64,000 nt of DNA from Tubiluchus corallicola (Eukaryota > Animalia > Priapulida), in NCBI GenBank assembly GCA_030141605.1, contig JAQGDQ010000231.1, positions 62,001-126,000 on the forward strand, read 5' to 3'. The notes beneath the pieces are model-generated. The model saw nothing but the letters and a program-made list of their open reading frames with translations. It ran no database searches and had not been told where the DNA came from. Numbering within the stretch: position 1 is the stretch's first letter; every line of letters starts with the position of its first letter. Below are positions 4,809 to 54,347 of this stretch, piece by piece. The position numbers and the translations under genes were made by a program.

Positions 4809-4930
<122 letters not shown>

Positions 4931-9542: not shown

Positions 9543-11450
<1,908 letters not shown>

Positions 11451-18800: not shown

Positions 18801-19083
18801 TAGCATTTTATTGTTTTGCTGTATGTGAATTATAAAAGTAGTTATTTTTGAACCTAAGGCACATCACAGAGAATTTAAAACAGTCTTTTTGTTTTTTGTA
18901 TTTCAGAATTGGACTGTGTTAGCAGTACATGAGCTGTTACAGCAAAGCCTTTCCGTAAAACACTGGAGTAAGTGCATTTAAGAAAATGTCACACCGTCAT
19001 AATATTTGTTTCATCGGTTGGCTTTAGTGACTTCAAAAAGTACAATATCAAGTAGTAACTTGGCCACCTGTATTGTCGTCACT

Positions 19084-21900
19084 ATGGCCGAGTTAGAAGG
19101 ATTTATAAATGAAGAAAAAGAGCTCCTCTTAGATAAAAAAATGGAGGCAATACGTCGTCGAAATGAAAAACTGCAGAAGCGATTTGAGGAAGTTGAAGCT
19201 GATAAAAAACATGCCGAACAGATAAGTTCATCTGCCAAAGTGGTGGATGACCACCATTCTGTGAAACCCCATGGTATGACCAAACGTGGTGCTGGTAGAG
19301 GCAAAAGGGTGTCTGCTGAACTCAAGCAAAATATATACCTAAATGATAAGCAAAATTTTATTCCTAGAATGACTGTTGAACCACCACCTGATCCTGTTTT
19401 TAGTTTTCTTGCTGATCGTTCCCGAGATGGGCAGTTCATATCTCCGGAGAATCAAGGTTCAAGCAGACGTCATAGGAGTAACTGGGGTGGAACAAATTTT
19501 GAAAACGTCAAAAGTAATATGACGCGCCAAAAGATAAGCGAAGATCGTTTTCCTCACCGACGGCAGGGATTCCCTTCGAAAGCAGAAAAAGAATTGGTTA
19601 TGACTGGAAAGGAACGACAAGAATATGACCAGTGGAAGTTGGAAAGGGAAAAAATAGATTTTGAGAGAAAAGTAAGGAAAGAGCGGGCTGGAAAGAAAGA
19701 GTGGGACCTAGATAAAGTACCAGATATTGACATTGCTCCAAAAGAGCCTGCCATCCCAGTGTCGAAAAGACATGGTAGAATGGCATACGAAAGACAAAAA
19801 GTTATAAGATCTGAAGATTTTGTAGTGGAAAACAGTAATTACCCTAGAAAGCAAAAACCTGAGCAAAGTAATGAGAAACAACGTGAACACAATACAAATC
19901 AACAAAGTGCCAATTACCATGCTCCACATTCAGAAAAACAAGGCAATAAGCTTAGTGGGATGTCACCATCCTCAGACTATGGTGATTCAAGTTTTCTTAG
20001 TGATTCTGCGGCTGGTGCTAGACAGAAAGAAAGAAATTACAACATGCATTCACCTGAAAATGTCAATACAAAACCTGCAATTGTTAAACATAAAGTGCTT
20101 TATAAAGAATCAACTGCAAAACAACTAGATGACGTTAATCCAGTCCAGAACAAACATTATAGAGCAGCTCGTGGTCGAGGTCGTCATTTACGTACCTGTA
20201 GAGAATCTTGTTCAATAGTTAATACTGCTTCTGTTGAACCCAGTTTTACTGACAATGGTGATGCAAAGAAAACAACACTGGCTACAATAGCACTAGACGA
20301 AAGCGCTACAGTACTGAGCAATGTAGATGATTCTGAATTAGAAAAAGATTATGCTATTACAACCAACAGAAAGGTCCAGTCACACAAGGAAAAATTGGTC
20401 ATAGAAATACAAAATAATCTAATGGGGAAGCTTTCTGGAAAAAATGCAGGCAAGAGAAGAAAACGAGGCAAACGAGACAGTTATAGTAGCTCTATTTCTT
20501 CTGATGCGGGAACTGCTTCTGAGCCTTCATCAGAGCTAATAATGAAAGAAAATGATGACAGTCACGTAGGTGATGATGGACAGGTAATAGAAGGTGCTGA
20601 TGATGATAACTGGGAAGACTGCTCAACTGGAAGTGAATCTGTAGAACTGTCTGGGGATTGTGCTCGTGAATCTATTGAATCACCTCATAAAGGCACTTCA
20701 CCACAGTTGCCAGATAGGGACAGTGCTGGCGGCATTTCTGACTGGGCTGCTGCTGTACAGTCGCCAACTACTCCTGTCATTGTGCAAAGCCCTGGTGGCC
20801 ATCAACATGTGCCAGAGTGGCCAGCTATGGCATTATTTAGAATAGCTGGTGACATCGAATGTGACCAATCAGATACCACTATGGCAGATTCTACTAAAGA
20901 CTTACGTGATTTCAAAGCAGAAAAGATAGCTTGTGCTGATTCTAATAAGCAATGTCTTATGCAACTGAAGACATCAGAACATGTTGCTGATAAACCTGAA
21001 GATCGAGCAGCAGTGAGTGATAAACCGCTAAATTTTTCCGAGGATTCATATCAGCCGTTACTTGAAAAACCTCCCGTTGAACGTTTTCAGCAACCTGATC
21101 GACAAAATCTTGATGCAAGTTTTCAAAAGCGTGTTCAGCAATCTACTGATGAAGCCATTTCTGAGTCAGCTGCCAAGTCTTCTGAATCCATACAAGAATC
21201 AGAGCTTTCAAATAATTCCGTTGAACATTCACCTGGAAAACCTGTAGATTTCGATATAGCAGATGAACAAGTGTGTAGTGATGATATTCACCAGAGTGAC
21301 AAGTTTATATCTAATGAGGGAAATCAAAATTGGAATGAAAACCACGATTCAGCAAGCGTAGACAAAATGTATTCTGTTCATTCTGTTGATGAACATCCCT
21401 ACAATGAGGAAGGTTCCGGTGAACCTATTCAGTTTTCCTCTGTGCAAACTATCGACATTATAGAATCATCAGATAATCAGCTTATTCAACAATTAGGTGA
21501 AGAGATTACTCAACCAAATGAAGAAATTTCTATTACACTTGTTGAACCTGTTTCTAATGGTAATTTAACTTCTGCTAAATCTGATCCCTTTGATGAACAG
21601 GCTGGTCCTGGTATTCATCAAGAATCGGTCAATTCATCTAACCAAACTGGTAGAGAATCTGTTCAAGAATTAGATGATCAAACTTCTCGTAACTTTGTTC
21701 AGCAAACAAATGAAATTTATGGTGATTCTATTCCACAAGCATATGTACAGATATGCAAAGACAGTGTTCAACAGTCTTGTCAGATTTCTGATGAAACTGT
21801 TTCCAGTGATCCTGTTCAGGCATCAAATGAACAGGTTACAAATGAATCTGATGAAACAGTTGAACAGTTAAATGAAGATAATCCAGGTGAGTCTCATTAA
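19084..21900 (+). CDS. CCDC9: CCDC9-like protein (DUF4594 family) with long acidic disordered C-terminus
   Basis: Uninterrupted ORF from ATG 19084. N-terminal coil LDKKMEAIRRRNEKLQKRFEEVEADKK and MTGKERQEYDQWKLEREKID...EWDLDK match CCDC9/CCDC9B motifs. 5'UTR acceptor TTTCAG ends at 18906. Confidence 0.8.
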   Translation: MAELEGFINEEKELLLDKKMEAIRRRNEKLQKRFEEVEADKKHAEQISSSAKVVDDHHSVKPHGMTKRGAGRGKRVSAELKQNIYLNDKQNFIPRMTVEPPPDPVFSFLADRSRDGQFISPENQGSSRRHRSNWGGTNFENVKSNMTRQKISEDRFPHRRQGFPSKAEKELVMTGKERQEYDQWKLEREKIDFERKVRKERAGKKEWDLDKVPDIDIAPKEPAIPVSKRHGRMAYERQKVIRSEDFVVENSNYPRKQKPEQSNEKQREHNTNQQSANYHAPHSEKQGNKLSGMSPSSDYGDSSFLSDSAAGARQKERNYNMHSPENVNTKPAIVKHKVLYKESTAKQLDDVNPVQNKHYRAARGRGRHLRTCRESCSIVNTASVEPSFTDNGDAKKTTLATIALDESATVLSNVDDSELEKDYAITTNRKVQSHKEKLVIEIQNNLMGKLSGKNAGKRRKRGKRDSYSSSISSDAGTASEPSSELIMKENDDSHVGDDGQVIEGADDDNWEDCSTGSESVELSGDCARESIESPHKGTSPQLPDRDSAGGISDWAAAVQSPTTPVIVQSPGGHQHVPEWPAMALFRIAGDIECDQSDTTMADSTKDLRDFKAEKIACADSNKQCLMQLKTSEHVADKPEDRAAVSDKPLNFSEDSYQPLLEKPPVERFQQPDRQNLDASFQKRVQQSTDEAISESAAKSSESIQESELSNNSVEHSPGKPVDFDIADEQVCSDDIHQSDKFISNEGNQNWNENHDSASVDKMYSVHSVDEHPYNEEGSGEPIQFSSVQTIDIIESSDNQLIQQLGEEITQPNEEISITLVEPVSNGNLTSAKSDPFDEQAGPGIHQESVNSSNQTGRESVQELDDQTSRNFVQQTNEIYGDSIPQAYVQICKDSVQQSCQISDETVSSDPVQASNEQVTNESDETVEQLNEDNPGESH

Positions 21901-30347: not shown

Positions 30348-30728
30348 ATGGCAGATGAAAAGAAAACTCAAAGTGAAAGTGAAGACAGTAATGCTGCTAC
30401 TGCTGTTCCCACTCCACCTCTGTCAGATTTCCTAAATCAGCTAGAGGAATATCCTGCTACCATTCCAGACAGTGTTGCTGCTTATTACCTTAACAAGTCT
30501 GGCTTCGAAGCTACAGACCCCCGAATTACGCGCTTAGTGTCCTTGGCTGCTCAGAAATTTATCTCGGACATTGTTAATGATGCTATGCAGAACTGTAAGA
30601 TGAGAGGTACCGGTCAGAGCTCAAAGCAAAAGGGAAAGGAGAAACAGTACACGCTGACTATGGAGGATCTGCAGCCTGCACTGATTCAGTATGGAATTGA
30701 TGTGAAGAAACCTTTTTATTACGTATAG
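30348..30728 (+). CDS. TAF10: Transcription initiation factor TFIID subunit 10
   Basis: LSDFLNQLEEYPATIPDSV...GFEATDPRITRLVSLAAQKFISDIVNDAMQNCKMR...TLTMEDL...YGIDVKKPFYY is the TAF10 histone fold. CDS has no intron; acceptor TTTGACAG ends at 30262. Confidence 0.97.
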   Translation: MADEKKTQSESEDSNAATAVPTPPLSDFLNQLEEYPATIPDSVAAYYLNKSGFEATDPRITRLVSLAAQKFISDIVNDAMQNCKMRGTGQSSKQKGKEKQYTLTMEDLQPALIQYGIDVKKPFYYV

Positions 30729-34297: not shown

Positions 34298-37200
34298 ATG
34301 TTAGGTAGCAGATGGAGTTTATTGAGAACTGGTGCCTGCTGGAGGGTACTAAGCATGTGCAATGAGTCGTCTGCCGTTGCTGGAGTTCCTTACGAATCAC
34401 TTGAAAAGACAAAGGTAAGTACGTCATTACAGAATTCATCATGCTTAGTAGCTGTGGGGCATTTTGTGATTTCGATTTAACTGGATAAATTAGATTGTGT
34501 TCCTATACCTATATCTTTTATTGTATTATTAATGGAGTTTATAATGGAAGAATTTGACTGCTGGTCCAGGAGTTCTGAATTCAAATCTCATTCAAGACTT
34601 TTCAAACATTTGCCACTCAAATGAAGGCCTACTCACGTTATCTGAGTACATGTGGGAGAAAGGTGACCGATCAATGAACAATCATAAATTGATGCCCTAA
34701 CCATCTATCCCAATGCTGGGCACATCTGACACGGCGCCATTTTACTTTCTTTTTATAATGACGATACTGAGGTGATAAATTGTAAATGGTCTGTATTTAA
34801 ATGGTTTATTAGGTTGATGTTCCAAGCAATGTTCCTACTGCTGCGGATGTTGTGGTGATTGGAGGTGGTTCATTAGGCTGTAATACTTTGTATCATCTTT
34901 CTAAACTTGGCATGACAAACTCATTGCTGCTTGAAAGAGACAGACTGACATCCGGTACAACGTGGCACACTGCAGGTTTGCTTCTTTTCTTTGCAATTCT
35001 AACCACAGAGCAGGGATGCTGTGCGCTGCTTGTAATCATGTGATGCCACCTGTATCTTTCATCACAAATCACAGTCTGCAATTGTAGAAATATATTTTTT
35101 TCATGAAATTTGCCACTACTATATTAACGCTTTAAGTACTATTTTTTGTAAAAGTTGTCCAAAACAAATATCTTGTTTTAGTTTTTTGTTTTTGAGGCCG
35201 CGAAGCATTAGTCAGGGTCATATCATCTAGTTGGCACTGTTACATCAAGCTTAGGACTTACAAAATTAGGAGCTTAAAATATGCGTGCTTGCATAACAAA
35301 ATCATCCATAAGTCAGCAATTAGCATTTTCTAGATATCCACATATCCCGAATCTCCATTTTATGAAGATCATTTTGATACCAAACTCAACGTTCTATGTT
35401 ATTTCTAAGCTGAAATAATCCACGTTGAAGTTGAGGTGCAGGCTATACAGTGAAAAACATAATCTTGAGGAATTCGCTGTTAAAGTCAGCCATTGTTTTT
35501 TGTCACGTCTTTACAAAACACTTAGCAACCGTCCGAAAGCGTAGTTGACATGGACCTTGCCAAGAGCATATTGAAGTAATGTTTGTCCAGCAGCTGGCTC
35601 TTCCTGACGAAGATCCGGTCTTGTCAACAGAAAAAACCCGAAGCAAAATGGCTGCTTTCACAAGCTACTGTCCGAGTTTGAAAATACAAGTTTTTACAAT
35701 TGCAGTCCTAGTTTCTATTCAGAAAAGTGGGTACAGGGTTATAAAATTAAATTTTTAGTATTTTTTTTCTTGATAATTTGATGCTAGAATATAAAAGTCC
35801 AATATATTTAGCGTGTTTTTTCTTAAAAAAACAAAAAATTAACATTAGACGAAAATTTGGTGCATTCTACTTTGAAGCATCGTAACGTAGTTTTGACTAT
35901 GCACTTATGGATGGTTTTGGTTTGCACGCACACGTATATTGCAGCTGCTTTATGCTGTTTTTCATTGTTATGGCCTTCATAATTTCGAATGTTTGAACGT
36001 AGATTTGACTTTTTTCAAAAAGGGTTTCATACCTTGTGTTTTAGGATTGTTATGGAATCTGAAACCCAGTGATGTAGAAGTGGAACTCATCGTCTATGCA
36101 CGTCACCTCATGGAAGACGTTTTGGAAGCAGAGACTGGCGTAAACACGGGGTGGATAAACAATGGAGGAATGTTTACAGCAAGTACCAAAGAACGACTTG
36201 ATGAATATCGCCGACTGCAAACGGTGTAGTTTTCATTGTGGCATTAATATGTTGTAACTTTAGCTATTGTTGTCGAATTTTTACGTTTTCGTGTTAAGTA
36301 ATTTTTTTTTTAAAGTGATCAATATCCCCCAACCCCCTACATTGTAAATTATAGATTTTTGTCAATTTGACATGTACTTTTGACGTCTGATGTAATGATG
36401 CTATCCTTCTATCTTCCTATTTCGCTTTTTAGCAGCTTTCAATAGGAGTGTTGCTGCTAATAAAGATTACCAAGACTTATTGCTAATTTGATCATTTAGC
36501 TTATACAGCCAGTTTCACTTAGCATACATCTGGTTAATTTTGATTTCTTATTTCATATCAGATCTCAAATCCCAAATGTTTAATAAACTGGGCACAATGT
36601 ATATGAATAATTATGCTGTTTCCTGCCCCTTTAATCACTTTGTTGTACTACGGCAGCTCGGCAGAGTATATGGCGTTGAGTCACACGTCTTATCACCAGA
36701 AGAAGCAAAGAAAATATATCCTCTGCTTAATGTTAGTGACACGTGCGGTGTTCTTTATAGTCCACGTGATGGAACGATCGACCCAGCTGGAATGTGTACA
36801 GCATTAGCAAGGGGTGCAACAGCAACGGGTGCCAAGGTGATTATTACTTTTTGGTGTTGACACCTAGTTCACTTGGATTTGGATAAGTAGATAAAAAAAT
36901 AGATGTTTTGACGTAATTACTAGTATTGTTAAAAGTTGAACGTTGCGAAGCTGTGTTTCAAACTTTCAACTGGTGGTCTGGGAAGCTGGGTTCTAAACTT
37001 ACCTTAGAAAAAATCAAACATAACGCATCATCAGTGTGTCATCTTCTTTCTTTCTAGGCTGTAATTTGATAAATTTGCCTATGAATACAATATGTTTAGC
37101 TTGATTTCTTTTTTACTGGGGGGCAAATCATTTAGTGCGCAGAATTTTATAAACTCGGAAGTCACTATACTGTTTGCATTTTCTAGATTTTTTTAACAAA

Positions 37201-40200
37201 CAAAGAAAAACGTTTAAGCTTCACTATTTTTGCTACTTTATTTAGGACCCCAAGAGCCTCAGCGACCAATGCAATATCTAGTCTTGTCTTGCATTGAGGA
37301 AGTCTCTCACAAGCCATAGTGTGAAGGAAGGGTCTATTAAAAAGCTACATTATAAAATCTTCCCTATGGACCATGTGAATAGTGATGCTCTGAATTTCCA
37401 CTGAACTTCAATTGGCTGTTGAATGTCATTATGCCAGGCTGACCTTGCACCTCATTTCTATCGTTACTACTGCATTGTCGCCATAGAAATGGGGCTTTAG
37501 CCAAGAGATAAATAAAAAAATTGCCAAAGGCCCCTTTTGATACAAGTAGGAGTTTGCTAAGATTAGAGAAAATTTGAACAAAAAATTGGAAATTAAAGTG
37601 TGTAGTGACTTTTGTGATGTTCTATATATATATATAGCCAAACAATTACATTCAAACGACGTTGTGGCTGCCTGTTGATCATGATATACTCAACTTTGTT
37701 GCTTGGTAGCATCATAATGCAAAATGTATGTGTACTTACCAAGCAAAAATAAGCTTCCAGATATAGATATTTTTCAGGTGATAGAGATGTGTCCTGTGAC
37801 TGACATTGAAACAACAGTAGATGATTTTGGCATAAAGAAAGTTACTGGTGTTGTCACTAATGCGGGCACAATAAAGACAAACTGTGTCATTAATTGTTGT
37901 GGTAAGTGTCTTACATTCTTAGAGCACTTGTGATTTAGCTTTTGTGTGGTGCAGTGCTTTTGTTCTAAAACATACAAAAAGTGTTTAGTTAACAAAAATC
38001 GTATATTAAAAATGATTTTTAAGGAAGAATTAAACAATTTCAGTTTTTATAACAAATTTCAAAAAACACCATCAAAAATTTATATATTAGTTGTCATGCA
38101 GAGACAGCAAAATTGGCAGTAACTACTGTAATTGTAACCCAGGCAAAAACACATCAACTGTGCTGCTTACAACAATAGCAACAGCAAGGACAACAAATGC
38201 CAACTTTATCAATCTAAACATAAAAAACTTGGCTGAACTGCACATTTCACTTGTTTCAGGTGTCTGGGCACCTTATATTGGAAAAATGGCTGGAGTGAAG
38301 GTTCCCCAACTTGCCATGAAACACGCTTACATTGTCACAGAACGTATCGAAGGCATTCAGAATATGCCAAATGCACGTGATCATGATGGATCTGTCTACC
38401 TCAAATTGCAAGGAGATGCACTGTCTATTGGGGGCTATGAACCAAATCCTGTATTCTGGGACGAGGTACTGCATGAATCGCAAATTGAATTTTTACATCC
38501 TGCAATGGGATGCCTAGCATTTGCTTGTGTTATTGTTGTTGTTGTTCTATGGATATTTTGTTCTAAAGTCAGGGTTTGCTTTGTTCATTCTTAGATGGTA
38601 TAGTTCACTTGAGCTTGTTCTTAATTGTCCTGTTGTCTGGTGCATAACTCCATTTTAGAGGAGCATTACACGTTAGGACAGCATAGATCTTGGGAATGCT
38701 CATCTTGTTTTTGCAGATGTGAATTCAGTATAAAGCTTAAAACTTTGAAAAGCTAAATAGGTAAAATGTTTTGCCAAATCAGGCAAAGGCAAGTAGGCAT
38801 TTCATATATTTCTTTCAAGTTGATTGTTTTCTTTTGAAATATTCGGAAAATGAAAAAAATTACATGATTTCGTTAACCAATGTAATGGCTTCCAAAAGAT
38901 ACTGTTTTTGCCAACAGCAGCATGGAGTTATAATGTGCAGTTGATTCGTTTTTTTATAATTTTGCAACTGGTATTTGCCTAGCATTTTGCATGTAGCATC
39001 ATTCCAGCTGCATCGCTAGAGTATACTGCTTATGCCGGTGTGTCACAACAAAGCAGCTATATTACATGGCTGCCGAGGCATCATATGAAAGATGCAGTTA
39101 GATTCTACAACTTAGTGAAGCATGTTGCTAATGCATAAAGTGTTTTCTACAATTTTTTACATCTTTTTTAGTCTGCTTACGTTAATAATGAATAACAAAG
39201 TTTCTTTATACAGGTGAAGAATGATTTCTCTTTTGGCTTATTTGACCTTGACTGGGATGTGTTTTCTGCTCACATTGATGTAGCAGTAAACAGAGTTCCA
39301 AAAATAGGAGAAGTTGGAGTGAAATCAACTGTCTGTGGACCAGGTAAAATGATCATTTTCACCTGCTATGGCAAACACAGTACAAAACCTATGTTCTGAA
39401 ATTTACAAAACACTCTTACACTTATATTTATCCTGTTCACAATAACTAAGTTTTCACAGTATGTGCTTGTCTGTGAAGTTAAGCAACGCTGCCATGGTTA
39501 GTAAATTGATTTGTGACCACTGAGAAAATTGTTTTTGTGTAGTTTTTGCTAAGCTGTACAGCCATTTGCCATGTAGCTGACTGACAGAAGTTTTATATGA
39601 GCATTAAAATGGGGATTATGATTCTATGCTATCATCAACATTGAGCAGGCGTGGCCTATAAGGACTGGATGCAGAGTGCGAAAGTACATAAAAAGTATCA
39701 TAACAAAGCAATTTTTACTATGCAAATGACAAGGGAACAGATTTCTATGAATAACTAGGTGTTTGTTTCATTTTGGTCCATGAAACCTCATGCTCACATT
39801 GTTATGATTGAAGTTTGTTTACATGTAACGCATTTGAAAACATTAATGGAAATTGTTTGTGGTTTTCAGAATGTGCAAGTGTTAGTTATATTTTACAATT
39901 AGAATCATTTAGAACTATGAATTTGCTTTAAGATTTACTAGTGAATTTATCTCAACACTTCACTAATATAGTTCCAACATGCGATTTTAATTTTTATCTG
40001 CTTTGAAATAACAGATGGCGATAGGTGGCTATCTGTTGCCTAATTGACCACTTGCATTTTTTTAGAGTCTTTTACTGCTGACCACAAACCACTGCTAGGT
40101 GAGTCACCTGAGGTGCGAGGTTTCTTTCTCGGTTGTGGATTCAACAGCGGTGGAATGATGATGGGACCTGGATGGGGCAGGGAGTTGGCAAAGTGGGTGA

Positions 40201-43200
40201 TACATGGTCGTCCTGAACTAGACTTGTTCAGCTATGATATCAGGTTTTTACTTGTTGCCATTTTCTTTGGGAATGTAATTTGCTGTGTCCTATTATAAAT
40301 TAAAGATTCGTGGAAATTAGTTGTTGTTAAACTTATAAAAGGAGTCTGTATTTTTAGAAGATTTTCGGCGCGTTTAACGGATAATTCCCGCTGGATAAGG
40401 CAACGAAGCCACGAATCTTATGCAAAAAATTATTCTATTGTCTTTCCACGTGATGAACCACTAGCTAGTCGAAATATGCGCAAAGATGCCTTGCATCAGG
40501 TACATCAGAATAGTTAGCTTGTCATTAGTTTAAATTAAAATTGCAAATTTTCACAATGATTGACTTTTGGATAAATTTCTAATAAGTTATAACATCAGTG
40601 CTAAACAAAAACGTACACAGAAGGCAATAAATTTGTATTTTGTCAGATTGTTGAGTTTGGTCATGACAGCTTAAATTTATCCATTTAAATCTATCGAAAT
40701 TTTGCATTTTGTACAAGATTTAACTGCACATTGATTGAAATCCATTTCTCTTAAAGTGAGACAACATGGCTTTTAACATGTAGTTAACTTTTGTATAAAA
40801 TGCAAAGTTTGGATAGATTTAAATGGATAATTTTATGCTGATTGTGACCAGTTAGACAATCTGGCAAACTTTTACAGTGATAAAATAGATAGGTTTAAAC
40901 TAATTTTTATTACCATTCATTGAGTGCAAGAAACTGAAACATAGATTTAATTTAGAAACATAGAAACATAGAAACTTAAATATAGATTCATAATGATATT
41001 ATGTAGTTTTGTGCTTATTTAGATCATCAGACTCACATTAACACATTGTCAATTTTTGTTTCAAAAGCTGTTTGAAAATACTTTATCCCATTTTGTGTCT
41101 GAATTGATTCAGTGATCTGAGCTTTAGCCATATGCAGATGATATACTACTCATTTATGTGAGGGTTCTGACCATTTTTAGGAGTGGGTTCGGTTGTGCTA
41201 TGTTAACCTAGCTGATTTACTAGCTAGGCATTTATTTATCTGATTGCTGCTTCCTCCTACATAAATAATTTATGCTTTTAATGTTATAATAGGTGCTGAC
41301 AGACAGAGGCTGTGTTTTTCAAGAGCGGCATGGATATGAGCGGCCTGGTTGGTTTATTCCTAATCAAGTAGTGCATGTATGTATTTTGTTTGTAGTATTT
41401 CCTTCATTGCCATAGTTAAAATTGATATACTTTTTGTTTCTCTGGCTTTTGTTATGTTTGCTTTAATTTGGAAGAATGTAGCTTAAGTTCTGGCATTTAA
41501 AGAAAAAATAAAGTTTGCAATAAGTTATATAGCTAACAATTACAAACAATTATTTTTCTCATAAATGTAATTCTTCCTTAACCAAATTATAAATAATTTT
41601 AAAGTGAATTACAGAATTTTGTTGTGACAACTGTTTATTGTGGGCATGACATCGTGTTAATGACTATAATAATCAGTTACTTAAAGTAAGTTTTCACTAT
41701 GTATTTTGTTATTTTAGTTACGGAAGTATGACTATTATGGTGCTTATGATAATCAAAGACATGAGAAATATCTCTACCGTGATTTGTTGGAACAGGAATA
41801 TACATTCGATTTTCCGAAGCATCACGACATTGTATGCATCATTTTGCAGTTATTTTAAGTATCGTAAGTCCTCACTTAATGACTTTAATGCATTCCAGCA
41901 AAGTGCTATGTTAAGCGTTAAACGAAGCATGATCTGCCATAGCGACAAGTTGTAGAATAATTCGTTTATCGTAAAGAAGACAAACTGCCCATTAAGTCTC
42001 AAAAATTTTTCATTTTTTACAGGAGCTTTCATCCTTCATGGACTTAGTCAGCTAAAATCTATTTGTATAGCCTAGATCTTGAAATGTGATTTTTCGTTAC
42101 CTGTTGTTTTCATTACTCTTATTATTTAAAAAACTAATTTGCTTCAAAAATTCACATCTTTATTGATTAAATTCGCTAATTCCTTCAATGCAAAGTCATT
42201 GTGCACATGAGTGTAAATTATAGCTGTTTAGTAACATTATTATATTCATTTAGATAGGTAAAGAAGCCCTGACATGTAGATCGTCCGTCTCTTTGTTTGA
42301 CATGTCATACTTTGGCAAATTCTACCTCTTTGGCTCAGACTCACAAAAGGCAGCAGACTGGATATTTAGCAATAATATGCAAAAACCTTCAGGTATATAT
42401 TCTGGTTAGATACGTAATAACTTTGTTTCATGATTATAATTTTATGACAACATTATGTTCTTTTGAAAAAAATTTACAATAATTTTGTTAGATTATCATC
42501 TAACAATTAAACAATTAATTATTTGATTAGTCAAGAAGATACCAGCTTGCAAATTTTATTTCTTGTTACTAATGTGATTTTCACAATCATATTAACCATT
42601 TTGCTAGGATCAGAACTGCATCTCGTGGACTAAATGCAGATGCATTGCTTCTTAAAATCTACTCTACCACAGTCTGTTACTTTGTACCAGATTTCACATT
42701 TATTTTGTTCACCAGCCTGGAATTGATACCTATGACCTAGACATTTAACATGGAGCTAAACTTCTACCTTCCTGATAATTGACAAAAGACCTTTACATTG
42801 CCATTAGATTACTTCGCTACACTTTTCATGATTTTAGGTTCTACGACATACACCTGCATGTTGAACAAAGCTGGTGGTGTAGAAGGTGACCTGACTGTTA
42901 GCAAAATTGATTCAGGCACAGGTACTGCTTGTGACCCTGAAGTTGAAGGTATGTAGCAAATGTGTTTTACTTACGTGTGTTTCAATTCATTTTGACATCC
43001 TTTTATATAAAAGCCATGCTGTGTGTTTAAATGTTATAATAGAAAACTTAACATAGGGTATAATTGCATGGATAATCCACAGCATAGTTACCGACAGATA
43101 ATTAAGAGTACTGTGTATATAGCATGGTACATTATAAAAGATGTGGTTTCATAGGTGATGGGTTCTACATTGCTGCAGGAGGTGCTGCAGCTCAGCAGAC

Positions 43201-46200
43201 TTGGTGTCATATTAACAATGCAATTCAAGATCAAAGGTTTAATTGCCTTCTAGTTGATCACACAGATGACATGATCATGTTGTCTATTCAGGGTCCTCGA
43301 AGGTTTGTGATGTATTTTCAATTTAAAGACGTCACCATATTTGCTTGTGAAATATAAACACTCCGGCTTGGCTTTGGCTAGTTCTGGATTCACTTATTAA
43401 AGACACATTTTCATATGTGTATGCACTTTTGTTTGATTGCCAATGATTCTGAGACCCACTCGAACACGTTATATATACATGTTGCCACAAAGCTTGCATA
43501 AATGTTTTAGTATTTCACTCTCTAAAAAGATGTTTCATCTAAACATGCAAGAAGCAGACACGTTCTGACTATTTTAAAAACCTGCAAAAAATGGGCAGCA
43601 TGCACAGCTTAATTTTTGATTAATTGACCCTTGAATTATAACAAACATCTCTCCAATGTTTGCTGCTGCTGTGGTAACTAAAGTTTGATTGGAAATTTCT
43701 TGTATTTAACAGATTTTGAATTGTAAGCTTTTTTGCGACTTAGTGTTGACTCTTTCCGAACTTATTTCCTGTTAAATGTGTTTTATATTTTATAATTTTA
43801 GCCGAGATGTTCTTCAGCCTATCTGTGATACAGAATTAACTAACGAAAACTTTCCTTTCTCAACGCATAAAGTGGTGAATGTAGCTGATTGTAAAGTTCG
43901 TGCTATGAGACTATCGTTTGTTGGAGAACTCGGTATTAATAACTTATTCATATTTGAAAAATGCTTGCTTAAATTCATATCATTGTATTCATATCATTGT
44001 TGATCATTTCAATGATGTTATAGATCTGTGACTAACACTAGCGCGACCTAATTTCCATTAGTTGTCTTACACATTTGCAGTGCTAAACAATAGGATGGTC
44101 TAAAGTTTTTTTAATCAATTGATGACAGTGTTAAAACCCAAAAGAGCATTTGCACATGGGAAATAAAACTAGTTTGTAGTATGACGCAAACAATGTGAGT
44201 TTTTTTATTGAGAACAACATTTTCCTAGTAACATTTTATGATCCAATATAGATCAGTGTTATCTAAAGATCCATTTTGTGCAGATTTCCTTGGTATTGAG
44301 AATTTTTGTAGCTAAAAATTTAATATTTGTTTTAATTCTTTCTATTTTAAATAAACTTTCGTAGTTCCAAGGAAAAAAGATACAAGATTTCTACAAAATT
44401 ATTTTCACTGTAATGCTGTTTAAGATGGTTCTGATTAATTAACAGTATGTGTATTTTGTTGCTTAAATAATATCCACCAATATTCTAATAAATCTGCAAT
44501 TTGTCAAAAGAGCATCGCGGACAGAAAATGGATTTGCTGTCGTGTAAAATGTTATCTGTGCCCTGCGGCAATTTCGAACAAGTTTTGCAATTCATTACGT
44601 GTCATGTGATCAGCCTATAGTAGATTCATAGAAGGCTTTATGTACAGTTGTTGTAGGAGTAACATTGTTGTTTGTAGAAATCGTTAAATGAAGTCATTTA
44701 CCTTTTCGTCTATGTCTGTCATTTACTTTACATGATACAAGGTTGGGAACTGCATGCACCTAATGAAGTAGCAACAACAGTTTACAGTGCTGTGATGAAA
44801 GAAGCTGAGAAGTATGGTGGTTGTAATGCTGGTTACCGAGCAATCGATTCTCTGAGTATAGAGAAAGGTGCCAATATAATGTCATTAAGAATTATTCTGT
44901 GCTACTGTACCAATATATGTTAAATTTATATAAGAGTCTTTTCCATCAATTCCGTTAACATTTCACTGTGTTAAGCTAATTTAAACTGATGATGATTTTA
45001 GTAAATTGCATTATCATTAATAAAAGCTGCTATTTATGTGTTCTATATAGAAAATTTATATAGAATCATGCACAATATTGTAATCAATATAATTAGATTA
45101 CATACTGGTAAAATTTGAATTTGTAGATGGTTAAGCCCTCTGATATCGTCGGGAATGCCTTTTATTACTCTAGTCGTTTTAGGACGTTTGGAAATATTTT
45201 TAGCTCACCATTTTGAAATCTTAAAACACTATAAGAAAAAACCAGAAAACTTGACAATGTTGACTTTTTAGAAACACAATATTTTATCCAATATGATTCA
45301 AAACATGTCGTTTGTTGGCCGATTCAGCTCCCTAAATCGTCTTAGTTTTTCCTGTTTGGGTTAACACTAAATTCCCATATTAGCACCTTTGTATTTTTAT
45401 TAAATGTAATAAACCAAATTTCTGTGTTTTTGTCAGAAATGTTAATCCGTTGTGTGAGCATTAAACTTTGTAGTTTTTAGCACTATGCTGATTTTATGAT
45501 GCTTCATTCACTTTTCTAGGATATAGGCATTGGCATGCTGATCTACGATTTGATGACACCCCTCTGGAAGCTGGACTGGCATTTACATGTAAACTGAAAA
45601 CTGACATTCCATTTCTTGGAAGGGAACCCGTGGAAAAACAAAAGCAAATGGGTCTGCACAAAAGAATAGCTTGTTTTACTATTGATGAGTAAGCATAGTT
45701 TTCTGAAATATTTTGCTTGTGGACGTTCCACCGGAACCTCAGCCTATGTATTGGACGATTGCGCCTTTTTTAAAACACTCAAAATGTGCTTGCTAATGTC
45801 TCAACGATGATTCCTAACATTCCAAACAAAAAATTGTTTCTTGTTACACAGTGTGGTGCATATGCAAAATTTCAAAAGATTTTATCATACGTTTGTTAGG
45901 CAAGATACCCCATTTTACAAATTTTGATAATGAGCTTTGGTTTTCTAGTCAGACAGAATGGTATTGCTATTATTAATTATAATACAAGTCTTACTGATTG
46001 TGTCGAAATAGATTGACAAACCAAGTTGAACTAAAGGTTATTAACTATGACCTTCTGAGACTTTCCATAGCCATAACAGTAAAAGAGGTTAGAATACTCT
46101 CAGGGTCTATTTCAGCCTAAGCGAGGCCCGGGGAATTGGGGGATGTGAGACCCCCTCAGGGGGGGTGCCCAGAAAATTTTTGAACTGCTAGAATGCCGGA

Positions 46201-49200
46201 GAAGCATTTTCGAAGAGAAAATATGGAGTTATACAGTTGTTAAAGGAAAGAACAATTGAAAGAAAAACTGCTTTATTCTCAAGACCAGTCCTTACTACTT
46301 GTCAAATAGTCAAATTAAAAACAACATCTTTGCAATATGTAATACCGTACTCTCACTTCCATACAAGCCAGTGTTAGAAATTCCAAAATTGAAAACAACT
46401 GAACATCGGCCCGAGCCGCACAAGGCAAACGGCGCTCGTACGGCAAGAGAAAAAGACAGAGAGAAGAGGCAGTATGTTCGCAGAAAGCAAAAAAAATTAC
46501 CTCGGCGTGAGGCCCCCCTGGAGGGTGAGGCCCATGGGAAGTATCCCCACTTCCCCCCACTTGAAATAGGGCCTGAATACTCTTTTCAGCTACTAAAGTC
46601 CGTAAGGGACAAATTTGTCTGAAGAAAAATAATGCATTTTTGAGACCTAAATGGCATTCTGACATTTTTTGTCTCTTATAGATATTCATCCTAGCCATGC
46701 CAGTAATCATGTTGGATAAGCATTTTTGGTTTTATGATACAAATAGGTCACAAAAAAGTTATAAATAGTACAAAATTCTGACAAAAAAACTTTCTACTTA
46801 TGTGTGTCAAAGACAGCAATTTTGTTACAAATCCACCGAGTGTTGAATTTTTTTTGAAGCATCTGAAGTAGTTCTAGTGCTTCCATGGAACGCCACAAGT
46901 TGTTTAGATTATGTGACACGTAGACACATGTAGATAAACATGAAGTTTTTTAGTCCTAATTACTGCCTAGTGTAAAAAGACATCGATGGTGTGGCGGATT
47001 GGCAGCAAATCTTATCACAGAGTGATTCAGTTAGTATTCTACTCAATATGATCACTGGTCGTCGAATCTAAGTGTGCTTCAAGCACTGATTATATAAGCA
47101 TTCTGCTAACCTTATAGGCATTGATTTTATGTTTTCCAATCACTAAAGTCATTTTCTTTTAGCCACTGATTAGATCTTTTAGCTACTGAAGGTAATAAAT
47201 ACACACTTAATTTGCTCATATTGCACAATGTTTCTGTTTGTCAGGCATGTAGCATTAAATGGTCTAGAAGCAATCTGGCGTGATGGTAAAGTAGTTGGCT
47301 ATATACGACGAGCTGATTATGCATTTACGTTAGGCAAATCTATAGGATATGGCTATGTTAAAAATCCAGATGGTGGAACAGTCACTCTAGATTTCTTACG
47401 GTATGTTGTGCAATATGCTTAGTAGCTTAATAACAATTCGTTTTGTAGATTATGAGACTTTCCATCCATTTTCTAAAGTACTTTAAAGCACTAAATTGTT
47501 TGTGGTGCATTAGCAACTTCTGAAATATAACCTGTCGGCCTCCTACAATTGTTTTTTGTTTTATTCCTTGCAGGATGCAGCCTATATATGGTGCGAACAC
47601 AACGAAAGCTTGTATAATCGCACTTATTATCAGCGCTTGTTGTTAGCGCTGATTATTATTATATTTTTGCAGCTAAAGCAGGTCATGGGAAAATATATGA
47701 GAAACCATTTCCAATTTCCAGCTGCACAAAATTCTCTCTATTTGTAACTGCAAACAGAAATTGTTTGACATGTTCCTAGTTGTTCGAATACTAATTGTTT
47801 CTTCAGTATTTGTATAAAAGAAGAAAAATGGTTGACCAACAATACACTTATATTATTTATCAGCGAGCTTCGTTCATTCTTTCATGTTTCGCTCATAAGC
47901 ATGGGAACAAGCACTTGAAACCTAGCATGAGCATCTGCTGTGTGTGGTTGTACGGGTTATCATAGAACGTTCTTGCTGCTTGTCTGCGCTTACAAGCGCT
48001 GGTATGTAACCCCCCTAAAACCAGCATTCGCTGTGTCCCTACCCTATGTTTAAAATATTATGGCAAAATATCACCGTTGCTGCAAAAAAGAGCAGCAACA
48101 TTTTTACTTTTTACCATGACATGCCTATTGAAAGACCTTTTTATGTTACCGGTAGTAAATAATTATGTGTAAAATTAATATAAAAATTTAAGACCTGTAA
48201 TACTTTTTATATGGACTAAACATAACGATTTTGTCACTGAAGCATGTCACTCATAGATTCATGGGTTTTTTCCGTAGAAGGCATTGCATAATGTTGTGTT
48301 ACGATTGTGGACTGTGGACTGAAGGTTTAACTGTACATGAGAAAAAAATCTTCACATGTTAAATAAATTTCAAATTAAAAATCAGTTAAACTATTCTGCA
48401 AGGTAACGATAAAATGTTAAGAATAGAGGATCTCGAAGATTTCAGCATATGAAGAGCACCCGTATTGCTGTTTGCCAGGAGGCAATTTTTAGCACGTTTA
48501 ACTATAAGAACTCCATGCAGCGTTAAGCAGATGTTTAACATTTAGAACGGTATATTATTTGCAGTTATACTTTTGTGATTAAAGGAACAATTATTAAATT
48601 AGTATAATTCGATACATTTATATTTGTAATTACGCTCTATGCGGTATGGCAGTATTATATGTAATTATTTTGTTGTTGTTATTTCAGCCTGATCATTGCT
48701 GCAATATCGTAAATAAACCACTTTGATCGATTCAGCAAAAACTTCCATAGTTATTTATGATCAGGCGGAAGAATGCCAATTGTTCAGTGCCCAATTACTG
48801 GCTGCAATTATGCAACAGAGGACTTGTCGGAGGCTATCGTTCTCGAACTCCTGCAAATACATCGTGGTAGTCACGCCACGAACACAGAGGCGGCACCACC
48901 CGCACATTCTGCTCCAACTGCGAAAATTGAAAAAGTGAAAAGGCCTACTGTATCTGCCGCCGGTACCAGCGAAGAATGGGCATATTTTACCACACGTTGG
49001 CAAGAATATGTAGATGCCACTGGTATCACTGGTAAAGACAGAGTAATTCAATTATTAGAATGTTGCGATGAAGCGTTACGCAAAGATCTCACTCGTTCTG
49101 CTGGTGGCAGTCTCAGTGGCAAAGCAGAAGATGTAGTTCTTAATGCTATCAAAAAGCTCGCTGTTCGCGTTGAGAACACCATGGTGGCTCGTGTAGCATT

Positions 49201-52200
49201 GCATGATATGCGACAAGACCATGAAGAACCTATCCGTGCATTCTGCGCCCGTCTACGAGGACAAGCCGGCATCTGCAATTATGAAGTGACATGTCCCGAG
49301 TGCGACACCAGTGTCAGCTATACCAACGAAATAATTCGTGACTGTATCACACGCGGCATTGCAGATCCAGAAATCCAACTGGACATTCTCGGCGACAAAA
49401 ATCAAGTCATGGATATCGAAGAATTATTAATGCTAATTGAAAGCAGAGAATCTGGAAAACGATCTGCTTCAAAACTCTTCGATACCCACAATGCTGAAGC
49501 AGTGCGTAGCTCATACAGACGAACAACAAGCAATCTAGCCAAAGATAAAACATCCGAACCATGCAGTCACTGCGGAAGACACGGTCATGGAAGTGGTTCT
49601 GATTTTAAATTACGACAGGACAAATGTCCAGCTTTCGGCAAAACCTGTACATATTGCAGTCGCAGAAACCATTTTGCTCCGGTATGTAGATCTAGAAATA
49701 AGCCAAAACATGCTGCTCCAGACCGTGACAGAGGTCGTGAACAATCCACCTCACTGGGTGAACAGGGAGCTGTGTTCGATACATTGTGTTCATTTACATC
49801 ACACGTACATGACAAAAATAGACGTCATACAGTTCCCCTTAGTCATCACCTATATGACCAGATGTGTAATAGTTGGCTACGCCAACCATCGAAGCCTCAA
49901 CCATTTGTTACACTGCGCATGTCAATAAACCCAAGCGACTACACAGCCCTTGGCTTTCGCTGTGGCAGACAACCAAATTCTTGTATAATTTCAGCAATTG
50001 CAGACACCGGATGCCAGAGTTGCTTGTGCAGCCTTAAAATGCTCACTCGCATAGGCATATCAGAGCAACATCTTATACCTGTCACCATGCGCATGCAAGC
50101 TGCTAATGATCGTGGAGTCAACATCCTTGGTGCTGCTATCCTAAGATTCACTGGTACATCTACGACTGGCAAACAACTGGAAACCAGGCAGATCGTATAT
50201 GTCACCGATACTTCAAACAAATTGTACATTAGCCGCGAAGCTTGTATTGCACTCGGAATGATCACAGAAAGCTTTCCAACGATTGGTGAGGTGTGCAACA
50301 CACTAGAGATATCATCATCAAACAGCACTTCATCTGAGACACATGACATATCAAAACCCCAACAAAACAGTAGTGGTTTGACATCTGAGTGCCACTGTCC
50401 ACGACGACAGCTGCGACCTACACCACCCTCCCAACTGCCATTTTCACCAACGCAAGAAAATTTGCCAAAACTGAGACAGTACCTCCTCGACACTTACAAG
50501 GCAAGCACATTCAACATATGTGAGCACCAACCTCTCCCACTTATGGAAGGGCCCCCTTTGAAACTCATGGTGAATTCTGATGCCACCCCCGTGGCACATC
50601 ACAACCCCATCCCAGTCGCCTTGCATTGGCAGAAACAAGTCAAAGCAGATATAGATCGTGACGTCCACCTAGGAGTCTTGGAACCTGTCCCCATTGGCGA
50701 ACCTGTCACTTGGTGCCATCGAATGATTGTATGCCCCAAGAAAAACGGCCAACCCCGCAGAACCGTTGACTTTCAAGCCCTAAATGCTCATGCCACAAGA
50801 GAAACCCACCACACCCAGTCACCATTTCTGCAGGCAAGATCTGTACCCCCAAACATGAAGAAAACAGTACTTGATGCCTGGAATGGCTACCACAGTGTCC
50901 CAATCCGTGCAGATGACCGCCATCTTACTACATTTATCACTCCGTGGGGCCGATATCGCTACAAAACAGCCCCTCAGGGTTACATTGCTTCGGGTGATGG
51001 TTACTCAAGACGCTATGACGAGATCGTGTCACACGTACCCCATCACACAAAATGTATTGATGACACACTCCTCTGGTCACCTACAATCAAAGAAAGCTTT
51101 TTCCAGGCAATAGAATGGCTTGACATATGTGGCCGTCATGGCATCACTCTTAATCCTGACAAGTTTATCTTTGCTGAAGACACAGTCGAATTTGCAGGAT
51201 TCGAAATTACACCCAATAGTGTCCGCCCTTGTCGGCGATATCTCCAAGCTATACTAGAATTTCCCACTCCAAAAAATATCACCGATGTTCGATCCTGGTT
51301 CGGCGTAATAAACCAAGTTAGTTATGCTTTCAGTATGGCTGACCGAATGCTTCCCTTCCGTGCACTCCTGAAACCCGGGACTCCATTCACATGGAATGCA
51401 CAACTAGATGAGATATTTAATGAATCCAAGGCACTCATTGTTCAGGAAATAGAAGACGGTGTTCGAATTTTCGATAAAACACGGCCGACATGCTTGGCCA
51501 CTGATTGGTCAAAATCAGGCATTGGCTTTTGGCTGCTGCAAAAACACTGCAAATGCCCCAAATCAACTCCTTTTTGTTGCCGTACTGGGTGGAAAATCGC
51601 TCTTGTGGGTAGCCGATTCACCACACCAGCAGAATCGCGATATGCCCCAGTCGAAGGTGAAGCCCTAGCAGTGGCAGATGCCCTTCAAAAAGCTAGGTAC
51701 TTCGTCCTGGGTTGTACAAACCTGACTATTGCAGTGGACCACAAACCATTGCTCAAGATCTTCAGCAACAGATCCCTTGATGACATGCCCAACCCTCGCC
51801 TTAGGAATCTGAAGGAAAAGACGCTCCGTTTCAAATTCCAGGTCATACATGTCCCTGGAGCAAAACATCGAGCTGCAGATGGCATCTCTCGACACCCGTC
51901 TTGCCCTGGCCATGCTGGTGATATGCCTCTGCCTGACGACATTGCCACAATTGGACAGGACACTAATATTACCTTGCCAAACCTACCTACTTTCTTTTTG
52001 GAAGGTATTCGTTGTCAGGAAACGCCTTCAGATTCCTTTGAGACATCCTTAATATGTTCAGCTGCCACAAAGCTTGCAAACTTCAAATCAGTGACATGGG
52101 ATATGGTCCGAGTTGCTACAACAAGTGACACCACCATGAACTTATTAAGAGACATCATAGAAACTAACATGCCAGAGGCACGTCAAGAGTTCCCAGCTCC

Positions 52201-54347
52201 AATACGTGAGTATTACCAGTTCAGGGAACACCTCCATACCATCGATGGTGTTATTCTTTATAAAGAGCGCATTGTTATTCCCCCATGCCTACGTGACACT
52301 GTGCTTTCATCACTCCATGCAGCACACCAAGGGGTCTCATCCATGATTTCTCGCGCAGAATCATCAGTATTCTGGCCAGGCATAACGACAGCCATATCGG
52401 CACTTCGAAGTCGTTGCCAAGAATGCAACCGTATTGCACCTTCACAACCTGCAGCACCGCCCGTTCCTCCAGTTATGCCAGTATACCCATTTCAGTGCAT
52501 CTGCGCTGACTTCTTTCATTACAAGGGCGTCTACTACCTCGTTGTTGTTGACCGTTATTCCAACTGGCCCATTGTCGAACGTTCTCCAATTGGGGCCACT
52601 GGTCTCATTGCCTGCCTCCGCCGAGTTTTTGTCACTTACGGCATTGCTGAAGAACTGGCCTCAGATGGTGGCCCAGAATTTATTTCATTCCAAACACGCC
52701 AGTTTTTTTCAGACTGGGGTGTCCATCATCGTCTCTCTTCAGTTGCCTTTCCTCACAGCAATTGCAGAGCCGAATTAGGTGTTAAGACCGTTAAGCGCAT
52801 GATTATGAATAATACTGGCCCCCAGTGAGACCTTGATACAGACTTGTTTCAACGAGCAATCCTGCAGTACAGAAACTGCCCAGACAGAGATACCAAGCTC
52901 TCACCTGCCCAGTGTCTGTTTGGCCGCCCTATACGAGATTTCATCCCTATAATACCCGGTCGCTACCAACCTCATAACACTTGGCAGGAATCACTACTAG
53001 CCCGAGAAGAAGCCTTGCGTAACAGACACATGAAAGCATCTGAACGGTGGACTGAACACACAAAACGCCTACCCCCACTAGTTGTTGGTGACAAGGTACA
53101 TTTACAAAACCAGACTGGTGATCATCCTACCAAATGGGACAAGTCTGGTATAGTCATTGAAGTCCGTCAGTATGACCAATATGTCATCAAGGTGGATGGC
53201 TCGGGCCGAGTAACACTTCGGAATAGACGGTTTCTTCGGAAATATGAACCAATTCATCCACCACGCCCCAGTATCTCTATTGATACTGACCTTGCTTACA
53301 ATGACAGATGCTTACCAGCTGAGAAACCTGCAACATCAGCCACTTTGCCACCTAAAACATACCAACGCCCTAATAATTCAACGTTACAGTCACCCAAACA
53401 CATGGATTTCAAACAAACAGATAAACCTGTTGGACCAGAGGACCCTCTCCCTAACCTCAGCACACCCTCACATATGCCACTAACTACCATACCAGACAAT
53501 CCCAAACCAGTTGATATGTCCATTGACTCCCCTTCGACTGCATCAGCTCCACCCAACCCAGTCATACCACTACGTCGTTCAACTCGGCAGAGGACAACTC
53601 CTGAGTGGCACAAAGACTTTGATATGTCTGGTAATTTGGTCAGTTATCAGTCTTCGACGTATGCTACCTCCGTCCAAGACTTAGGGGGGGATAGAGGATC
53701 TCGAAGATTTCAGCATATGAAGAGCACCCGTATTGCTGTTTGCCAGGAGGCAATTTTTAGCACGTTTAACTATAAGAACTCCATGCAGCGTTAAGCAGAT
53801 GTTTAACATTTAGAACGGTATATTATTTGCAGTTATACTTTTGTGATTAAAGGAACAATTATTAAATTAGTATAATTCGATACATTTATATTTGTACTTA
53901 CGCTCTATGCGGTATGGCAGTATTATATGTAATTATTTTGTTGTTGTTATTTCAGCCTGATCATTGCTGCAATATCGTAAATAAACCACTTTGATCGATT
54001 CAGCAAAAACTTCCATAGTTATTTAAAGAATTAGTAGATTACAGGGATCAATGGAAACTCACAAGATTCAGTAACATAAACATTCAATTAATTATTATAT
54101 GTACTTCTGCATGTATATTTGTTAGGAGAAACATACATTTTTGTATTTATAGTAAAATCGTTTTTTGAAACCAAAATTTCCTTTTTTGCTTCAATAGCAA
54201 GCTGTTATTGTATTGCACAAATTTTTGTCTTATTTCAGGTCTGGAGACTATGAATTGGAAAGCATGGGAACTCGTTATAAGGCAATATTACATACAAAGT
54301 CACCATTTGATCCAAAAAACTTACGAGTACAAGGCATTTACGAGTGA
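34298..54347 (+). CDS. SARDH: Sarcosine dehydrogenase, mitochondrial (19 coding exons, ~901 aa)
   Basis: Exons 34298-34414, 34813-34975, 36045-36223, 36657-36836, 37778-37901, 38260-38465, 39214-39343, 40066-40243, 40358-40499, 41293-41376, 41718-41831, 42254-42392, 42838-42948, 43155-43302, 43802-43932, 44742-44867, 45520-45688, 47245-47400, 54239-54347. All introns GT-AG; total 2706 nt. FAD motif VVIGGGSLG; covalent flavin His in [11 protein letters not shown] (SARDH-type rather than DMGDH); [11 protein letters not shown]; GcvT-like C-terminus [12 protein letters not shown]. Confidence 0.95.
39475..39526 (+). mobile_element. Decayed 5S rRNA-derived fragment (older SINE3-type copy) in SARDH intron
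   Basis: GAAGTTAAGCAACG...GGTTAGTA...GTGACCACTGAGAA aligns with the 5S internal control region at 818-871. Confidence 0.55.
40640..40867. repeat. ~230-bp foldback (inverted repeat, MITE-like) in SARDH intron
   Basis: TTGTCAGATTGT...TTATCCATTTAAATCTATC...TTTGCATTTT pairs with AAAATGCAAA...GATAGATTTAAATGGATAA...ACAATCTGGCAA. Confidence 0.8.
45716..46899. mobile_element. Putative TIR element hosting a hAT MITE
   Basis: CTTGTGGACGTTCCACCGGAA (45716) versus reverse complement CTTGTGGCGTTCCATGGAA (46899). No clear TSD. Confidence 0.45.
46101..46575. mobile_element. hAT-superfamily MITE
   Basis: TIRs CAGGGTCTATTTCA and CAGGCCCTATTTCA; perfect 8-bp TSD AATACTCT at 46093-46100 and 46576-46583. Confidence 0.85.
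48424..48757 (+). repeat. 5' LTR (TA...TA termini)
   Basis: Matches 53692-54025 except A48629/C53897. TATA-like 48653-48660, Inr-like TCAG 48684-48687, AATAAA 48712-48717. Confidence 0.95.
48758..48770 (+). promoter_or_regulatory. Primer-binding site, self-complementary to the LTR (non-tRNA)
   Basis: TGATCAGGCGGAA abuts the LTR end and pairs at 12 of 13 positions with TTCAGCCTGATCA at 48683-48695. Confidence 0.7.
48773..52828 (+). CDS. Gag-Pol polyprotein (Gag zinc knuckles, protease, RT, RNase H, integrase core)
   Basis: Knuckles CSHCGRHGH and [14 protein letters not shown]; protease ADTG; [10 protein letters not shown]...CIDD; RNase H LATDWS...[11 protein letters not shown]...VDHKPL; integrase HAAH..CQEC, ADFF, SDGG, SNCRAE. 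Ends at an in-frame TGA. Confidence 0.95.
52829..53794 (+). pseudogene. In-frame continuation of Pol (integrase C-terminal part) beyond a premature TGA
   Basis: Same frame as 48773; ILQYRNCP...[22 protein letters not shown] and RRSTR motifs; runs through the PPT into the 3' LTR. Confidence 0.85.
53692..54025 (+). repeat. 3' LTR
   Basis: Direct repeat of 48424-48757, preceded by the PPT and followed by the TSD. Confidence 0.95.

Follow-up and report, generated by a model that had tools for sequence, protein, structure and literature searches.

The window, i.e. the whole 64,000-nucleotide (64-kb) stretch of DNA that was analysed, contains a Ty3/Gypsy LTR retrotransposon, in which LTRs, a target-site duplication, a polypurine tract and the order reverse transcriptase (RT)-RNase H-integrase are all present (Table 1). 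The element is a young Gypsy insertion, as seen from the single mismatch between its LTRs and its 5-bp target duplication, and it lies in an intron of a gene which we take to be sarcosine/dimethylglycine-dehydrogenase-like and whose exons with DAO and GCV_T_C domains span 36562-54345. The acceptor-like CAG and the AATAAA that the element carries into this last intron could truncate the host mRNA. Elsewhere in the window we observed an exon matching TAF10 (30427-30594, Pfam E=3e-23), a 965-codon open frame with a DUF4594 match (19003-21900) and two long simple repeats with a three-base period, which stand in opposite orientation (4810-4942 and 10273-10447). A search of the window with ARAGORN gave 0 tRNAs.

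The terminus that the 5' LTR has at A48757 follows from its 3' copy together with the AAGAA duplication of the target, and the LTR begins far upstream of position 48653, at which the interval of the first-pass annotation had started. The gag-pol frame encodes, in this order, an N-terminal Cys/His finger-like motif, a CPA-type double zinc knuckle, a protease-like motif recognized by eye, RT, RNase H and integrase, and its best relative of solved structure is Ty3 Gag-Pol (E=3e-34). The finger-like motif at the start of Gag (48773-48880; Cys-Pro-x3-Cys...His-x3-His) is invariant among 44 aligned proteins and gave no clear match in Pfam. The integrase is interrupted by an in-frame TGA, across which five relatives align at 70-73% identity; with this stop, the window copy would need help in trans to transpose again. 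The pol frame passes through the purine tract and continues for about 100 nt into the 3' LTR (53690-53794).

In a sequencing run of a kind that is not on record (X1), which appears DNA-like as the intron was covered, the summed contig depth was about 75-195 on the element and 1-3 on its flanks, an excess that fits a multi-copy family and gives no copy number. Steps in the X1 depth at 48679-48757 were considered as a mark of the start site and dismissed; in our reading, they come from contigs that overlap near variants and the ends of the LTRs. The variants listed in this run all lie outside 48687-95 and 48758-66, and one minor variant breaks the pair T48696:A48757. A second run (X2), guessed to be RNA and likewise consisting of contigs, gave one 83-nt piece with 10 differences.

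Table 1 Features of the element and of the intron that holds it, in positions of the window.
Feature	Position	Strand	Remark
Last intron of the presumed sarcosine/dimethylglycine-dehydrogenase-like host gene, holding the element in sense orientation	47401..54238	+	GCV_T_C and DAO on upstream exons
Left target-site duplication AAGAA	48419..48423	+	
5' LTR, 334 bp, ends TA...TA	48424..48757	+	Single mismatch to the 3' LTR (48629/53897)
TATA-like TATTATAT, 33 to 26 nt upstream of A48686	48653..48660	+	Putative function
TAAT, T-rich tract and TTTCAG: candidate initiator (A48686 = +1), equally a 3' splice-site look-alike	48661..48687	+	
Predicted self-primer segment GCCTGATCA	48687..48695	+	Predicted cut 3' of A48695
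R-U5 stem, TTGCTG (48696-701) with CAGCAA (48733-38)	48696..48738	+	AATAAA (48712-17) in the loop
Short U5 hairpin (AACT/AGTT), third arm of the predicted three-way junction	48740..48752	+	Weak support
Candidate primer-binding site TGATCAGGC, adjoining the LTR	48758..48766	+	Without TGG
Single gag-pol frame from ATG (48773) to in-frame TGA (52826-28)	48773..52828	+	
Remainder of the integrase, in frame with the preceding part and reaching about 100 nt inside the 3' LTR	52829..53794	+	No chromodomain, GPY/F or SH3_Tf2-1 match
Polypurine tract AGGGGGGGA, adjoining the 3' LTR	53683..53691	+	
3' LTR	53692..54025	+	Direct repeat with the 5' LTR
Right target-site duplication AAGAA	54026..54030	+	

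Pairing of the primer site with the element's own LTR

The first-pass annotation had proposed that the bases following the 5' LTR pair with a segment of that LTR rather than with a tRNA. Indeed, the candidate site directly adjoins the LTR end and is without TGG, and the 9-bp duplex of G48687-A48695 with T48758-C48766 exists with all bases as described. T48696:A48757 adds one further pair, and TTC (48683-85) meets GAA (48768-70) across an A:G mismatch; the TATA-like box, the AATAAA and the nested stem were likewise located where the annotation had placed them. When the upstream 135 nt were shuffled, an anchored run of at least 9 Watson-Crick pairs arose in 11 of 20,000 cases (P=0.00055). The leader folds in prediction as a three-way junction with a z of -3.4, both for 48683-775 and for 48687-775, and this value weakens with wider flanks (-2.2 for 48680-800 and -1.2 for 48660-790). 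The duplex of the window element is among the shortest of its clade (9 bp, or 8 after the AG), and the ATG of Gag follows only 6 nt past it.

Relatives were collected through a Gag search, which returned 356 proteins, few of them named (from Mytilus, Diadema, Actinostola and Clytia, with Lamellibrachia in one cluster), and through two scans leading to 89 loci, of which those in bacterial assemblies are inferred to be animal host DNA. The viral contigs searched gave no match, and the homologue P0014 hit generic RT clusters only in the ESM Atlas. Among 90 sequences including the window, 81 have a Gag start and 70 of those an LTR-end motif, as judged with a profile that derives from 10 ends known through repeat pairs and takes in the first two site bases; the ends of L037 and L087 were moved by hand to the motif nearest the ATG. 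The 11 sequences without the motif include L030, L038 and L066, in which the LTR end or the site is deleted, late-starting contigs and repeats. Two of the 70 loci were left out for too little upstream DNA, and the other 68 represent 41 families.

In 38 of these 41 families, the family's own LTR pairs with at least 9 of the 10 leading site bases, compared with 19 of 1640 combinations in a cross-family swap control, and the site 10-mers are of 39 distinct kinds. Compensatory covariation of LTR segment and site, which the first-pass annotation had suggested looking for in relatives, is thus present. The families that fall short are L015 (8 of 10), L069 (7 of 10) and L028, whose LTR is truncated, and duplex-breaking changes in single copies occur in L022, L026 and L064. 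Among the 38 families, which were selected for passing, positions 0 and 1 are invariant and the first site base forms an A:T pair throughout, all four Watson-Crick pair types are found at positions 5 and 7-10, and G never occurs at position 3. In 37 of the 38, the first site base anchors the duplex and TT comes directly behind it, and position -1 shows a T:T in 35. None has TGG at the site start. The predicted primers end in CA in 32 families, the sites correspondingly starting with TG, and this CA may be a relic of an ancestor with TGG.

The nested stem varies in concert as well: at the third base after the primer, 23 families have TTG:CAA and nine TTC:GAA, the remainder being discordant (four), other (one) or unanchored (one). 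For this covariation, Fisher's test gave p=2e-5, a value that is uncorrected for kinship and to which many TTC families contribute as kin. The inner stems fold in prediction as two arms in 28 of 38 families, yet their stability does not exceed that of shuffles (mean z -0.25). Two subgroups are referred to in the following, subgroup A with a short leader (13 families, including the window element) and subgroup B with a leader of 100-126 nt (12 families). In 19 of the 38 families the fold encloses an AATAAA or ATTAAA, a signal that is absent from 11 of the 12 in subgroup B. Subgroup B loci such as L016, L031 and L081 carry a recurring CACCACCA-like leader motif about 10-25 nt 5' of the ATG. TA...TA ends with 5-bp duplications were found in the window element, L016-L029, L056, L062, L081 and L086, and TA...CA ends in L120; the TA...TA termini imply a changed end recognition by the integrase.

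Position of the clade among Gypsy elements

As controls, we searched five host-contaminated assemblies with RT and obtained 40 stretches, one without an RT match, three within the clade and 28 outside it with a repeat pair, some boundaries of which are rough. Among these 28, a TGG adjoins the LTR in 24, and pairing of 9 of 10 bases was reached in a single one, with 19 offsets tried. The five assemblies, deposited as bacterial genomes, hold 136 Gypsy RT matches, many within intact LTR elements, and these are likely to be animal host DNA binned as bacterial. In five of the control elements (L134, L137, L139, L141 and L149), the frames end with RT-RNase H, which suggests an integrase placed 5' of RT, an order that we take to be Gmr1-like.

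The unrooted RT-RNase H tree comprises 52 rows, i.e. 17 of the 38 families, three other in-clade sequences and 32 others; four near-duplicates were left out, and named Tf1, sushi or Mag sequences are not among the rows. The self-complementary group forms one side of a long branch (100/100), and it includes the deeper relative L120, the RT of which is 53% identical, with TA...CA ends and all 10 of 10 site pairs. The neighbouring group (95/94) consists of L121, L122 and L124, in which the CPA knuckle recurs together with TG...CA termini and a site with TGG; the CPA knuckle layout is common to the window element and L121-L123. Elements bearing GPY/F are separated from the clade by several strongly supported branches, and long branches meet elsewhere in the tree. 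A tree of Gag is weakly resolved, with 6 of 33 branches starred.

That no chromodomain is visible, as the first-pass annotation had reported, agrees with our Pfam scan of the C-terminal 287 amino acids and three full-length relatives, which returned no chromodomain match and included no chromodomain-bearing positive control. GPY/F, SH3_Tf2-1 and Integrase_p58_C were absent from P0245, L120, P0005, P0014 and P0035, and Integrase_p58_C was detected in 8 control proteins by the same scan. Three of the Tf1/sushi traits tested, the chromodomain, the GPY/F-type module and TG...CA ends, were thus not found in the clade. The annotation had further called the Pol Mag-like and proposed an RT phylogeny against Tf1/sushi and Mag. 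On this point, the sister group combines Mag-type traits with sites of the tRNA type, and the clade itself lies far from GPY/F-bearing elements; because the tree is without named Tf1, sushi or Mag sequences, the label Mag-type rests for the nearest neighbours on the traits described in PMC5408684.

From the Mag-type, tRNA-primed sister group and the lack of chromodomain and GPY/F in the clade, we conclude that self-priming here is likely to have an origin independent of Tf1/sushi, within a tree that holds no named reference. The trait is likely to have arisen once, on the long stem of the clade, from a tRNA-primed ancestor. Judged by its sequences, this Mag-type group of Gypsy elements, which end in TA...TA and have no visible chromodomain, in our view bears a real, clade-wide signature of predicted self-priming.

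Predicted priming mechanism and its alternatives

The position of the site, its pairing, the covariation with different letters, the stem behind the segment, the lack of TGG and the structure of the clade are properties of the DNA itself. Start site, fold-back, cleavage by RNase H, extension and recopying would, by analogy to Tf1, be arranged as follows. The RNA would start at A48686 or within two bases of it, and its first 9-10 nt would fold back onto 48758-66 and thereby close the three-way junction. The element's RNase H would cut after A48695, beside the conserved T:T mismatch, and from the new 3' OH, synthesis would proceed beginning with the last base of the LTR. Once the strand has been transferred, the 3' LTR would serve to recopy the primer segment and U3, so that both pairing partners would be inherited and must change together. 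That these Gypsy elements prime RT with a segment of their own LTR, whatever sets the edge of that segment, appears very likely, and the version with an RNA start near A48686, as in Tf1, is probably the correct one.

The edge of the predicted primer could also be made by splicing of a host exon, a spliced leader or a short LTR exon to C48688, the element still being self-primed. The duplex has a YAG at its 5' edge in 25 of the 38 families (0.18 in the background), and pairing ends exactly after the AG in L012, L013, L025, L077 and L120. In subgroup A, T accounts for 60% and pyrimidines for 71% of the 19 nt 5' of the YAG, another AG is missing in 85% and a branch-like motif is present in 77%, compared with 34%, 51%, 29% and 33% for 794 background YAGs; seven host acceptors, one of them taken one base off, resemble this context, and a joint acceptor filter is passed by 8 of the 13 families and 3.9% of the background. 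TATA-like motifs are rare in subgroup A (1 of 13 at -30) and some U3 regions measure only 34-58 nt, which makes the promoter step weak there, and the window copy lies in sense orientation in a host intron (n=1). A conserved donor-like site about 143 nt 5' of the YAG in L056 (1241-1550) and L060 (697-1009) would, upon splicing, add four pairs to the 10-bp duplex (14 bp; p=0.09), and L120, which also has a strong donor-like GTAAGT in U3, would gain two. Against this, none of 12 families showed a significant extension of the duplex across a junction (best p=0.06; window p=0.7), the search for a conserved internal donor was negative (8 of 38 at best, for a site in a Lys-Val codon pair), and L001 pairs through TTTCAG itself (18 bp), a match that the window element retains in part. 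Five of the 38 families are without a YAG 6-25 nt from the primer end, and subgroup B fits TATA plus initiator better: here the motif reads YCAGT, its A is the exact first base of the duplex in 8 of 12 families, and 6 of 11 have a TATA-like motif at -31 to -29, an arrangement that one would expect around a start site. Moreover, the T-rich tract might be an upstream poly(A) element. The letters alone do not decide between initiator and acceptor; we favour the putative initiator because it accounts for subgroup B and for the families without YAG, and consider an edge set by splicing unlikely. Unlikely as well is the further-reaching proposal for subgroup A, in which the LTR would largely be a splice acceptor rather than a promoter, insertion would take place in sense orientation into host introns, and host or spliced-leader splicing to the CAG would both make the genomic RNA and set the primer edge, so that start site and tRNA would be dispensed with. 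Two related schemes were discarded, a copia-like gag-only splice into the 3' LTR, as there is no conserved donor, and a BEL/Pao-type junction primer, as genomic pairing suffices in the 38 families and the junction extensions were not significant.

Self-priming has also to be weighed against explanations in which the LTR segment is not the primer. The fold-back could be real and serve to mask the 5' poly(A) signal, to control translation or in packaging, another RNA or a protein acting as primer, and the poly(A) signals inside the fold in half of the families and the closeness of the Gag ATG would be compatible with this. However, in all 38 families the duplex opens with the base directly behind the LTR, from which minus-strand synthesis has to proceed, the poly(A) signal is looped and unpaired besides being missing from nearly all of subgroup B, and no alternative primer site is visible, which renders such a role very unlikely. 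Priming by a tRNA fragment, i.e. a half tRNA or an internal 3' end, with an incidental match to the LTR would have a parallel in the half-tRNA priming of Copia lineages (PMC6317226) and would suit the frequent CA ends of the predicted primers. The many distinct sites, each matching its own LTR but not those of other families, cannot track a few conserved tRNAs; we hold this explanation to be highly improbable. Chance complementarity in one AT-rich LTR, to which the short duplex of the window element and its fading z with wider flanks might point, is practically negligible in view of the shuffles, the swap control and the single pairing control outside the clade.

Comparison with known self-primed and tRNA-primed elements

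Experimental proof of self-priming is known for Tf1 of fission yeast only; elsewhere it is a prediction, made for the chromoviruses akin to Tf1 and for one Copia lineage of plants. A large clade from marine animals, whose named proteins belong to mussels, a sea urchin, a sea anemone, a hydrozoan and a tubeworm, would, nested as it is within Mag-type elements that are tRNA-primed, represent a separate origin. The tRNA-primed sister group lets the switch in priming be studied directly, and the conserved geometry, with the predicted cut site by a T:T mismatch and a covarying stem, offers a ready substrate for studying how RNase H cuts an RNA duplex. Given TA...TA ends and no tRNA site, standard LTR finders are likely to miss or mis-trim such elements.

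In Tf1, the primer site lies next to the LTR and stems flank the duplex; the site of the clade also adjoins the LTR, with stems beside its duplex. Tf1 and Tf2 of S. pombe, Tj1 of S. japonicus and the Tf1/sushi and Tcn1 chromoviruses are described, in the accessible parts of the sources, with a primer site complementary to an upstream LTR segment and not to a tRNA (PMC4600332, PMC6317226), and the clade resembles them, as known here from sequence, in a site complementary to its own LTR and without TGG. Unlike Tf1/sushi, it has no match to a chromodomain, GPY/F or SH3_Tf2-1, carries TA...TA rather than TG...CA ends and a CPA-type double knuckle, and is set apart in the tree from GPY/F-bearing elements. 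A canonical TGG site is also reported to be lacking in dictyostelid Skipper, fungal GalEa and bivalve TRIM (PMC5006619, PMC6934838); in the portions available, Skipper is described as having no complementary LTR region, and the hairpins of GalEa and TRIM lie within the internal domain, unlike those of the clade.

Mag elements (A, B and C clades; MolGy3 and MolGy11 in molluscs) are characterized, in the part of the source at hand, by two adjacent knuckles, no gag-pol frameshift, no GPY/F and no chromodomain (PMC5408684). The clade agrees with them in its double knuckle, single gag-pol frame and lack of GPY/F and chromodomain, as well as in a size of about 5 kb, a 5-bp duplication and short LTRs. 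In the excerpts available, the primer sites published for Mag correspond to tRNA Leu, Ser or Arg (PMC3286476), and TG...CA is given for the ends of its LTRs (PMC3601003, Table 3), whereas the clade has a self-complementary site and TA...TA ends, and its RT-RNase H is at most 36% identical to everything with which it was compared outside the clade. Four peptide motifs of the clade were absent from the five searchable supplements of the mollusc paper, one further PDF consisting of pictures beyond search. The name 'Smaug', which we presumed to denote a Gypsy group, was abandoned for this use: the paper found gives it to a gene, and the available text of the Ginger paper is without it.

As far as the accessible parts of these papers go, self-priming is placed in Tf1/sushi, in Tcn1 and, by prediction, in plant TAR Copia elements, and mosquito Mag elements have tRNA sites (PMC4600332, PMC6317226, PMC5006619, PMC6934838, PMC3601003, PMC5408684, PMC3286476, PMC6238403, PMC11042837, PMC2836005, PMC3315495, PMC4558846, PMC13383693). 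Our literature search found no description of self-priming in Mag-type elements, though Repbase entries, subscription journals or one unreadable supplement could hold one. For the plant Ty1/copia TAR lineage (Houba, Osr-1), the sections seen of PMC6317226 report self-priming as predicted from sequence outside Tf1/sushi, so that an independent origin, as we consider likely for the clade described here, has a precedent, although TAR belongs to a different superfamily and its hosts to a different kingdom.
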